NCBI RefSeq assembly: GCF_003018255.1
Contig: NZ_CP027440.1
Reading direction: 5' to 3' (one strand)
From: Escherichia coli
GTDB lineage: Bacteria; Pseudomonadota; Gammaproteobacteria; Enterobacterales; Enterobacteriaceae
DNA length: 64,000 bases
Shown: one piece after another, positions 37,201 to 38,265 of the stretch
Numbering within the stretch: position 1 is the first letter of the stretch
How the letters are laid out: the number at the start of each line of letters is the position of its first letter
The notes under the pieces: model-generated
What the model was told of the DNA's origin: nothing
Seen by the model: only the letters and a program-made list of their open reading frames with translations
Databases searched by the model: none
Translations under genes and position numbers: made by a program

Positions 37201-37370
37201 GCGTATTGCCAATGGCAACCAGCACGGGTGCCGGTTCCGGTGGTCAGCATGCGGTGGGTACTGGCGTAATGGGCGGGATGATTTCGGCCACTATTCTGGC
37301 TATTTACTTCGTGCCGCTGTTCTTTGTGCTGGTGCGCCGCCGCTTCCCGCTGAAGCCGCGCCCGGAATAA
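34257..37370 (+). CDS. acrD: RND-family aminoglycoside efflux pump AcrD
   Basis: 1037-aa ORF; RND transporter with 12 TM segments and two large periplasmic loops. Confidence 0.94.
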
Positions 37371-37374
37371 GCAA

Positions 37375-37408
37375 TAAAAAAGGCGACATGCTAATGTGTC
37401 GCCTTTTT
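37375..37408. terminator. bidirectional intrinsic terminator (acrD / ypfM)
   Basis: Stem ggcgaca...tgtcgcc flanked by A-run and T-run (aaaaaggcgacatgctaatgtgtcgccttttt). Confidence 0.7.
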
Positions 37409-37468
37409 CAACTTTCCGATTAAGAACCTGCTCAGCGGGTTCTTGCTGTTTGTACTTTGTCTCAGGAA

Positions 37469-37528
37469 TTACTTACGAAGCATAACTTCGATAAAGTCTT
37501 TCCAGTTCCCCAGTTCACGTTCAATCAT
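37469..37528 (-). CDS. ypfM: 19-aa small protein YpfM (MIERELGNWKDFIEVMLRK)
   Basis: Hand-translated minus-strand micro-ORF not in the ORF track; SD-like gagagg upstream; position between acrD and yffB as in K-12. Confidence 0.75.
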   Translation of the reverse strand: MIERELGNWKDFIEVMLRK

Positions 37529-37890
37529 AACAACCTCTCTTATAATTATGGGTATTCTACGGAAACAATATACCGTGGTGAAGCTAATTTACTCGATTGC
37601 TGCGATGACTACCTCCGGGGGACAAACCTTATGTAAATACTATGGTCCTGCGGTGATAATTTGTATGTGATACACAGCAACATTTCGAGATATTCATACG
37701 GCATCTAATACTGATTTAATTCTGGTTAAAATACAGACAGATAACAAGATGAATATTCTTAATGTTTACGTTAAAAATGTTTAATGTTATTTAATAGTTG
37801 TTAATTTGAATACTTCGATAATGTTATATTTCCTGATGATCATTTGCAGGCAAAATGTTTTCACCCTTAAATGAGTATTTATTCTCATAA

Positions 37891-38265
<375 letters not shown>

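Follow-up and report, generated by a model that had tools for sequence, protein, structure and literature searches.

The 19-codon reading frame at positions 37469-37528 on the minus strand of the window (the whole 64,000-nucleotide stretch of Escherichia coli DNA analysed here) is the already known, annotated and experimentally detected small-protein gene ypfM, and we are almost certain that it is a real, translated and selected protein-coding gene. Translation of the minus strand between these positions gives exactly MIERELGNWKDFIEVMLRK followed by TAA. The neighbouring genes are acrD (plus strand, end at 37370) and yffB (start at 37909). The first-pass annotation, made from the letters of the sequence, had proposed a 19-codon micro-ORF here, named it ypfM and placed an SD-like gagagg upstream of it. 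The identification was confirmed by the exact translation, by the RefSeq annotation at the same coordinates and by the comparative coding signature. The gagagg belongs to a conserved Shine-Dalgarno (SD) region, AAGAGAGG, which can be read from the sequence at 37541-37534 (minus strand) and is separated from the ATG (37528) by 5 nt (ttgtt).

The frame had also been described as falling below the cut-off of the ORF track, which is correct: the minimum length in that list is 20 amino acids, and the 19-codon frame is therefore missing from it, whereas a 75-aa plus-strand ORF (37443-37670) is present. As the list contains 38 ORFs of at least 20 amino acids in the approximately 2.3 kb around ypfM, the length of the ypfM ORF alone is within chance. 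It is the comparative evidence, rather than ORF length, that puts the gene beyond chance.

A 651-nt stretch around ypfM was found in 5425 of 5426 complete E. coli genomes, and its best matches are annotated, in this order, as acrD, 'ypfM: protein YpfM' and yffB. E. coli SMS-3-5 has identical DNA, and its ypfM CDS, WP_001386977.1, coincides with 37469-37528 (minus strand) of the window. The YpfM of E. coli K-12 (WP_001386977.1, NF033843) is this very gene, with an identical peptide, on the same strand and at the same position between acrD and yffB, and no difference was found. A segment of 80 nt, which comprises the SD and the ORF, occurs in 5424 complete E. coli genomes and is at least 99% identical in 4784 records. 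The matching places in E. coli number approximately 5430-5445; one of them belongs to a plasmid record, and two places occur in some genomes. The gene was predicted in 2001.

YpfM is represented by a curated equivalog model, NCBIfam NF033843 (small_YpfM), which has 19 positions and a cut-off of 33 bits. The 19-aa peptide of the window is under the 20-aa minimum for scanning, and the model was scored on a natural orthologue from Lelliottia nimipressuralis (locus L028, approximately 2022-2111, minus strand), in which a K19N replacement accompanied by loss of the stop codon creates a 30-aa read-through product, MIERELGNWKDFIEDMLRNDLQEELQEHLI. The orthologue scored 50.2 bits (E = 1.5e-13), with 17 of the 18 aligned positions identical to the window peptide. 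This score and the 100%-identical RefSeq CDS place the window peptide in the family, for which a match above 33 bits is required. With the same read-through orthologue as query, no match was found in Pfam.

The peptide has been observed directly. In a proteomics study from 2025 untagged YpfM was detected intact by top-down mass spectrometry (MS), with 100% coverage and with the N-formyl-Met retained, and it was detected too by DIA and PRM (data-independent and targeted MS); the same paper, in which YpfM was quantified in M63 with low Mn2+, notes an earlier detection by Schmidt et al. (PMC12529367). The ribosome profiling or epitope tagging that the first-pass annotation had proposed as a check on ypfM is superseded by this direct detection.

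Conservation was studied in 80 Enterobacterales loci, one genome per species, with the adjacent yffB as anchor, so that the presence of the ypfM ORF itself was no criterion of selection. The window gene is in the orthologous position, convergent with acrD and divergent from yffB-dapE. A ypfM homologue was present on the expected strand in 72 of the 80 loci, 70 of them with an intact 19-codon ORF (the other two being the Lelliottia read-through copy and a Yersinia copy), and the range among these loci reaches Dickeya, [Erwinia] mediterraneensis and Yersinia. The Yersinia nurmii homologue (locus L072, 901-960, minus strand) is a diverged peptide of 20 amino acids, MVDVELNTWKEFIESMLRKA, whose ORF is preceded by the same AGAGAGG SD. 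The acrD-like match ends approximately 450 nt away from it, and yffB is at a distance of approximately 1.5 kb, so other DNA lies between this copy and yffB. This copy falls outside the scan of 1500 nt upstream of yffB and was found on a wider search; it extends the YpfM family to Yersiniaceae.

The nucleotide changes in ypfM follow the codon structure. Among the 54 distinct nucleotide sequences the ATG was invariant, the stop at codon 20 was TAA in 35, TGA in 15 and TAG in 3, and Leu and Arg codons were swapped synonymously. Mean pairwise differences at codon positions 1, 2 and 3 were 0.068, 0.075 and 0.274, the third-position variation being approximately fourfold that of the other two. The pN/pS ratio was 0.154 in the ypfM frame, compared with 1.5-2.1 in four of the five other frames. 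Counted as Fitch minimum numbers on a neighbour-joining tree of yffB-dapE, the changes at the three codon positions were 25, 28 and 124, respectively; 15 of the position-1 changes occurred at the two Leu codons, where CTN/TTR exchanges are synonymous, and residues 4 and 15 accounted for 26 of those at position 2. Columns were variable at 15 of 18 third positions, as against 11 of 36 first and second positions (Fisher p = 2.8e-4). In a subset of 39 species the ORF had zero indels, whereas 23 different lengths were found for the 3′UTR. Judged from these alignments, ypfM bears the marks of strong purifying selection on a protein across Enterobacterales, rather than those of a conserved RNA.

The distinction bears on how the transcript is classified. 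Sittka et al. (2008) described a Salmonella transcript, STnc250, from the acrD/yffB spacer, which includes the ORF that had been predicted as ypfM in E. coli. In Northern blots it appeared as a stable short mRNA of approximately 220 nt with growth-phase dependent expression, in Hfq co-immunoprecipitation it was enriched 4-fold (24 reads vs 6), and the authors concluded that STnc250 is a 'small mRNA gene' (PMC2515195). STnc250 is the orthologous transcript of ypfM; in Rfam it is classed as an Hfq-binding sRNA, but the evidence identifies it as an mRNA. The name of the Rfam family and the Hfq co-immunoprecipitation would fit a purely non-coding sRNA, in which the 19-codon ORF is incidental and what is conserved is RNA sequence or structure. 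Such an RNA is contradicted by the uneven distribution of changes over the codon positions and the low pN/pS, by the synonymous Leu and Arg swaps, by the three spellings of the stop at one fixed position and by the physical detection of the peptide with its fMet. The MS detection and the codon pattern refute the purely non-coding interpretation, to which we assign practically no probability.

The second reading frame to be considered is the 75-aa ORF (37443-37670, plus strand), which is antisense to ypfM and its promoter, and which had been called almost certainly spurious from the start. If it were a real gene, the conservation of ypfM would be its shadow, and in all 71 loci the frame does remain open where it overlaps ypfM, with a pN/pS of 0.295. 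Stops expected in this frame from synonymous Leu changes (TTA/CTA) were found in none of the 71 loci, the frame not being the exact reverse-complement frame of ypfM. Its third positions coincide with the wobble positions of ypfM, which accounts for both the openness and the low ratio, and the ratio of the ypfM frame is lower. Relative to the ypfM stop, the left end of the 75-aa frame varies from -2 to -368 nt and the right end from +75 to +333 nt across species. Neither its start nor its stop is conserved, and the ends differ already between E. coli and E. albertii (+201 and +168, respectively). Two thirds of the frame extend over the ypfM promoter and over upstream DNA that is poorly conserved and rich in indels. 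The 75-aa product has no match in Pfam or NCBIfam and no CDS in RefSeq, and the peptide detected by MS is the product of the minus strand. Because its ends are not conserved, its wobble positions are shared with ypfM and it matches no family, we consider the 75-aa ORF to be spurious, as the first-pass annotation did, and the chance that it is the true gene is negligible.

The features surrounding the ypfM ORF make it very probable that ypfM is an independently transcribed, monocistronic small-protein gene with a complete unit of its own. In the alignment of 39 species the conserved blocks were the -35 and -10 elements, an A/U-rich leader, the SD, the ORF and the terminator. The promoter scan yielded a sole promoter-like site, with TTCACC as -35 (37577-37582, minus strand) and TAGAAT as -10 (37554-37559, minus strand), spaced by 17 nt. 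The CTTCAC block at the -35 and the GTAGAAT/GTATAAT block at the -10 are conserved in the alignment, and T120, A121, A123 and T125 of the alignment reference, in the -10 region, are at least 90% conserved. The same arrangement, TTCACC-17-TAGAAT, was assigned to ypfM by sigma-70 genomic SELEX (Shimada 2014; PMC3946193). From the position of these elements we infer a transcription start site near 37547. Further downstream, the GAGG of the SD is invariant or nearly so across the 39 species.

At its other end the unit is closed by a bidirectional Rho-independent terminator (37369-37410, both strands), which consists of an A-run, a GC-rich stem and a T-run and was recognized by terminator scan, folding and covariation. 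In the stem (37375-37410) 94.5% of the alignment cells were paired, and compensatory changes were found in 7 of 11 pairs. None of 500 shuffles reached a covariation as high, and in slid controls 35-64% of the cells were paired. The A-run and the T-run, on opposite sides of the stem, make the terminator bidirectional, and it serves both convergent genes, acrD on the plus and ypfM on the minus strand. The earlier placement of ypfM just past the acrD terminator is thus correct in that a hairpin with a T-run at 37375-37410 separates the two genes, but the hairpin does not belong to acrD only, because it ends the ypfM transcript too.

Between the ORF and the terminator lies the 3′UTR (37411-37468, minus strand), which is variable both in sequence and in length and in E. 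coli contains a hairpin at 37445-37421. A hairpin upstream of the terminator recurs with unrelated sequences, GTGTGAA...CACAC in Enterobacter, Lelliottia and Leclercia and AAGAACC...GGTTCTT in Escherichia. The majority-base identity of the 3′UTR was 0.24-0.54 in the 39-species alignment, and its length ranged from 27 to 91 nt across species, multiples of three not being favoured. The mean z-score of folding was -1.5, with 16 of the 39 species below -1.64. For the 3′UTR hairpin, structure seems to be conserved without conservation of sequence.

According to this arrangement, the sigma-70 promoter TTCACC-17-TAGAAT would drive the synthesis of a short ypfM mRNA of approximately 175-180 nt, composed of a leader of approximately 20 nt with a strong conserved SD, the 19-codon ORF and the variable 3′UTR. 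The transcript ends at the Rho-independent terminator common to the convergent acrD, and translation of the ORF yields a 19-residue peptide that accumulates in the cells. The E. coli transcript predicted in this way (approximately 176 nt) is shorter than the approximately 220 nt observed in Salmonella, so a second, upstream start is possible. The 39-species alignment contains a conserved upstream block (aTCACATacAAAT ... CATAGT; 37639-37671, minus strand), approximately 60-90 nt upstream of the -35 and between the promoters of ypfM and yffB, in which the A and the final T of CATAGT are at least 90% conserved. As a sigma-70 promoter the block was rejected, its spacing of approximately 20 nt being ill-fitting. 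It could be a regulator site or the second start of a longer transcript, and may be relevant to the greater transcript length in Salmonella.

Published data place several regulators in this neighbourhood. In Salmonella a ChIP peak of MarA, accompanied by a weak marbox, was described for the orthologous ypfM-yffB spacer (PMC10268841), H-NS is noted for the E. coli ypfM-yffB spacer (approximately 37583-37908 of the window) in a genomic SELEX table (PMC3946193), and a SELEX peak of the RpoS holoenzyme was found within acrD, beside ypfM (PMC5493296).

The gene order is highly conserved. In 69 of 71 loci acrD converges on ypfM, the two stop codons lying 71-254 nt apart; yffB is followed by dapE in 79 of 80. 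In Yersinia ypfM adjoins acrD, away from yffB; in Dickeya it adjoins yffB, and no acrD-like match was found within the fetched locus. The tight linkage to convergent acrD, beside which the Yersinia copy has stayed, and the spacer shared with the divergent yffB-dapE promoter would suit a role in cis, in which ypfM acts as a leader peptide or attenuator or interferes with acrD by convergent transcription. On the ypfM strand, however, the ORF is followed not by a gene that a leader could control but by the 3′UTR, the terminator and the 3′ end of acrD. The terminator downstream of the ORF is strong and its own, and as it is bidirectional, it insulates acrD and ypfM from each other. Moreover, a leader would need neither 11 invariant residues nor a stable peptide. 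We regard a cis-regulatory function as very improbable.

A more serious alternative to a gene that makes only a peptide is a dual-function RNA, a transcript that encodes YpfM and in addition acts as an Hfq-associated regulator, which pairs with mRNAs or titrates an RNA-binding protein. The Rfam model RF01409 (STnc250, 'Hfq binding RNA') matches 37370-37489 (minus strand) end to end (full model 1-94) with 37.1 bits and E = 3.3e-5. The score does not reach the gathering score of 42, probably because the 3′UTR covered by the model is the least conserved part of the unit. Further Rfam matches, to CsrC, Ysr186 and STnc320, involved the terminator only, were far below the gathering scores and were rejected. 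The layout of the transcript is sRNA-like, for it is short and combines a 3′ hairpin with an A/U-rich stretch and a U-tailed terminator, and the 3′UTRs tend to fold in many species. The 4-fold Hfq enrichment in Salmonella is compatible with such a role, but it is modest, and Sittka et al. regarded the transcript as a small mRNA.

Substitutions at synonymous sites also bear on this point. At synonymous third positions of conserved degenerate codons 6.5 events were counted in ypfM and 14.9 in yffB on the same tree (Mann-Whitney p = 1.4e-4), a rate less than half of that of yffB; dapE was dropped as a control, since only two of its codons passed the filter. Codons 5 (GAA), 8 (AAC) and 10 (AAA) of ypfM hardly change, and codon 7, a rare GGG for Gly, was kept in 49 of the 54 distinct sequences. 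A model in which selection acts on the peptide only does not fully explain this constraint. The slow synonymous sites may reflect either codon bias or a constraint at the RNA level, and the former, as in a well-expressed gene, or the requirements of initiation over so short an ORF would likewise lower the synonymous rate.

The non-coding parts of the transcript are not conserved except for the SD and the terminator (24-54% identity in the 3′UTR), therefore the ORF is the only candidate for a seed. The slow synonymous sites and the kept GGG codon, taken with the Hfq signal of the Salmonella orthologue, leave a small chance that a regulatory segment of a dual-function RNA lies inside the 19 codons. 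Known dual-function RNAs of E. coli, AzuCR with AzuC (164 nt, 28 aa), Spot 42 with SpfP (15 aa) and SgrS with SgrT (227 nt, 43 aa), resemble ypfM: each is a short independent transcript that has a promoter and a terminator of its own, associates to some extent with Hfq and encodes a very small peptide. Unlike these, ypfM has no known base-pairing target and no conserved non-coding seed, and it is absent from a 2025 review of dual-function RNAs. The supplementary files of Adams 2021 and of the Salmonella small-protein census do not mention ypfM. Overall, we consider a dual function of the transcript unlikely, and prefer the view of ypfM as a small mRNA that encodes a peptide.

A paper from 2025 refers to ypfM as 'of unknown function' (PMC12093975). 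The peptide has a GRAVY of -0.43 and no net charge, with 4 acidic and 4 basic residues (8 of 19 charged). Its helical hydrophobic moment is 0.546, a value reached by 3% of shuffles. Across 20 YpfM variants 11 of the 19 residues were invariant: M1, I2, E5, W9, K10, F12, I13, M16, L17, R18 and K19. On a helical wheel I2, L6, W9, I13 and M16, with their 4-3-4-3 spacing, form one hydrophobic face flanked by F12 and L17, and all seven of these residues are invariant or nearly so, whereas the freely varying residues 4 and 15 are side by side on the polar face. From these properties YpfM is predicted to be hydrophilic and to form a single amphipathic alpha-helix. With a profile of the variants as query, no relative of YpfM was found in the PDB; the PDB and PHROGs matches obtained were discarded as chance (E ≥ 0.27).

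The small size, the orphan promoter-terminator unit and the Hfq association are reminiscent of some type I toxin loci, which raises the question whether YpfM is a type I toxin or a small membrane protein. A hydrophilic peptide in which 8 of 19 residues are charged offers no membrane-spanning stretch, and neither the promoter scan nor the Rfam search revealed a conserved antisense promoter or RNA. The probability of a toxin or membrane protein is minimal.

Bacterial small proteins usually act by docking on a larger partner protein, and an amphipathic helix with a conserved hydrophobic face makes such docking the most likely mode of action for YpfM. The hydrophobic face would dock onto a larger protein and modulate the activity of this partner. 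We put the chance that YpfM acts by partner binding through its helix, as the pattern of conserved residues suggests, at about even. The partner might conceivably be a conserved neighbour, e.g. the resistance-nodulation-division (RND) pump AcrD. A parallel is offered by AcrZ, an enterobacterial small protein that binds the RND pump AcrB and is a transmembrane helix. YpfM is likewise an enterobacterial small protein, and its gene adjoins the RND pump gene acrD in nearly all loci. In contrast to AcrZ, YpfM is hydrophilic, and its link to AcrD consists of synteny, which is confounded by phylogeny. The synteny is strong, yet it does not settle what the partner of YpfM is.

One E. coli strain carries a natural knock-out. 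In E. coli Res13-Sevr-PER06-05-b-A (NZ_CP062815.1; locus L082, 1692-2547) ypfM is interrupted after codon 9 by an IS1A element with a target duplication (GGAACTGG). The split gene is one of two incomplete ORF matches among the twelve records listed. The insertion indicates that ypfM is dispensable in at least that strain. The 'protein YpfM' annotated by PGAP at the split locus (WP_195686594.1, ISWSHYRNWKDFIEVMLRK) has no proper start and was dismissed as an annotation artefact.

ypfM is no discovery: practically all E. coli genomes carry the annotation, NCBIfam has a model for the protein and the peptide has been seen by MS. It is a positive control, a genuine gene of 19 codons that was picked from raw sequence while the longer antisense shadow ORF was rejected. 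A comparison anchored on yffB, with one genome per species, was enough to validate an ORF far below the cut-offs of ORF callers. If there is a regulatory segment within the ypfM ORF, the transcript would be an unrecognised dual-function RNA. With more than half of its residues invariant across the sampled Enterobacterales, YpfM is among the shortest conserved bacterial proteins.
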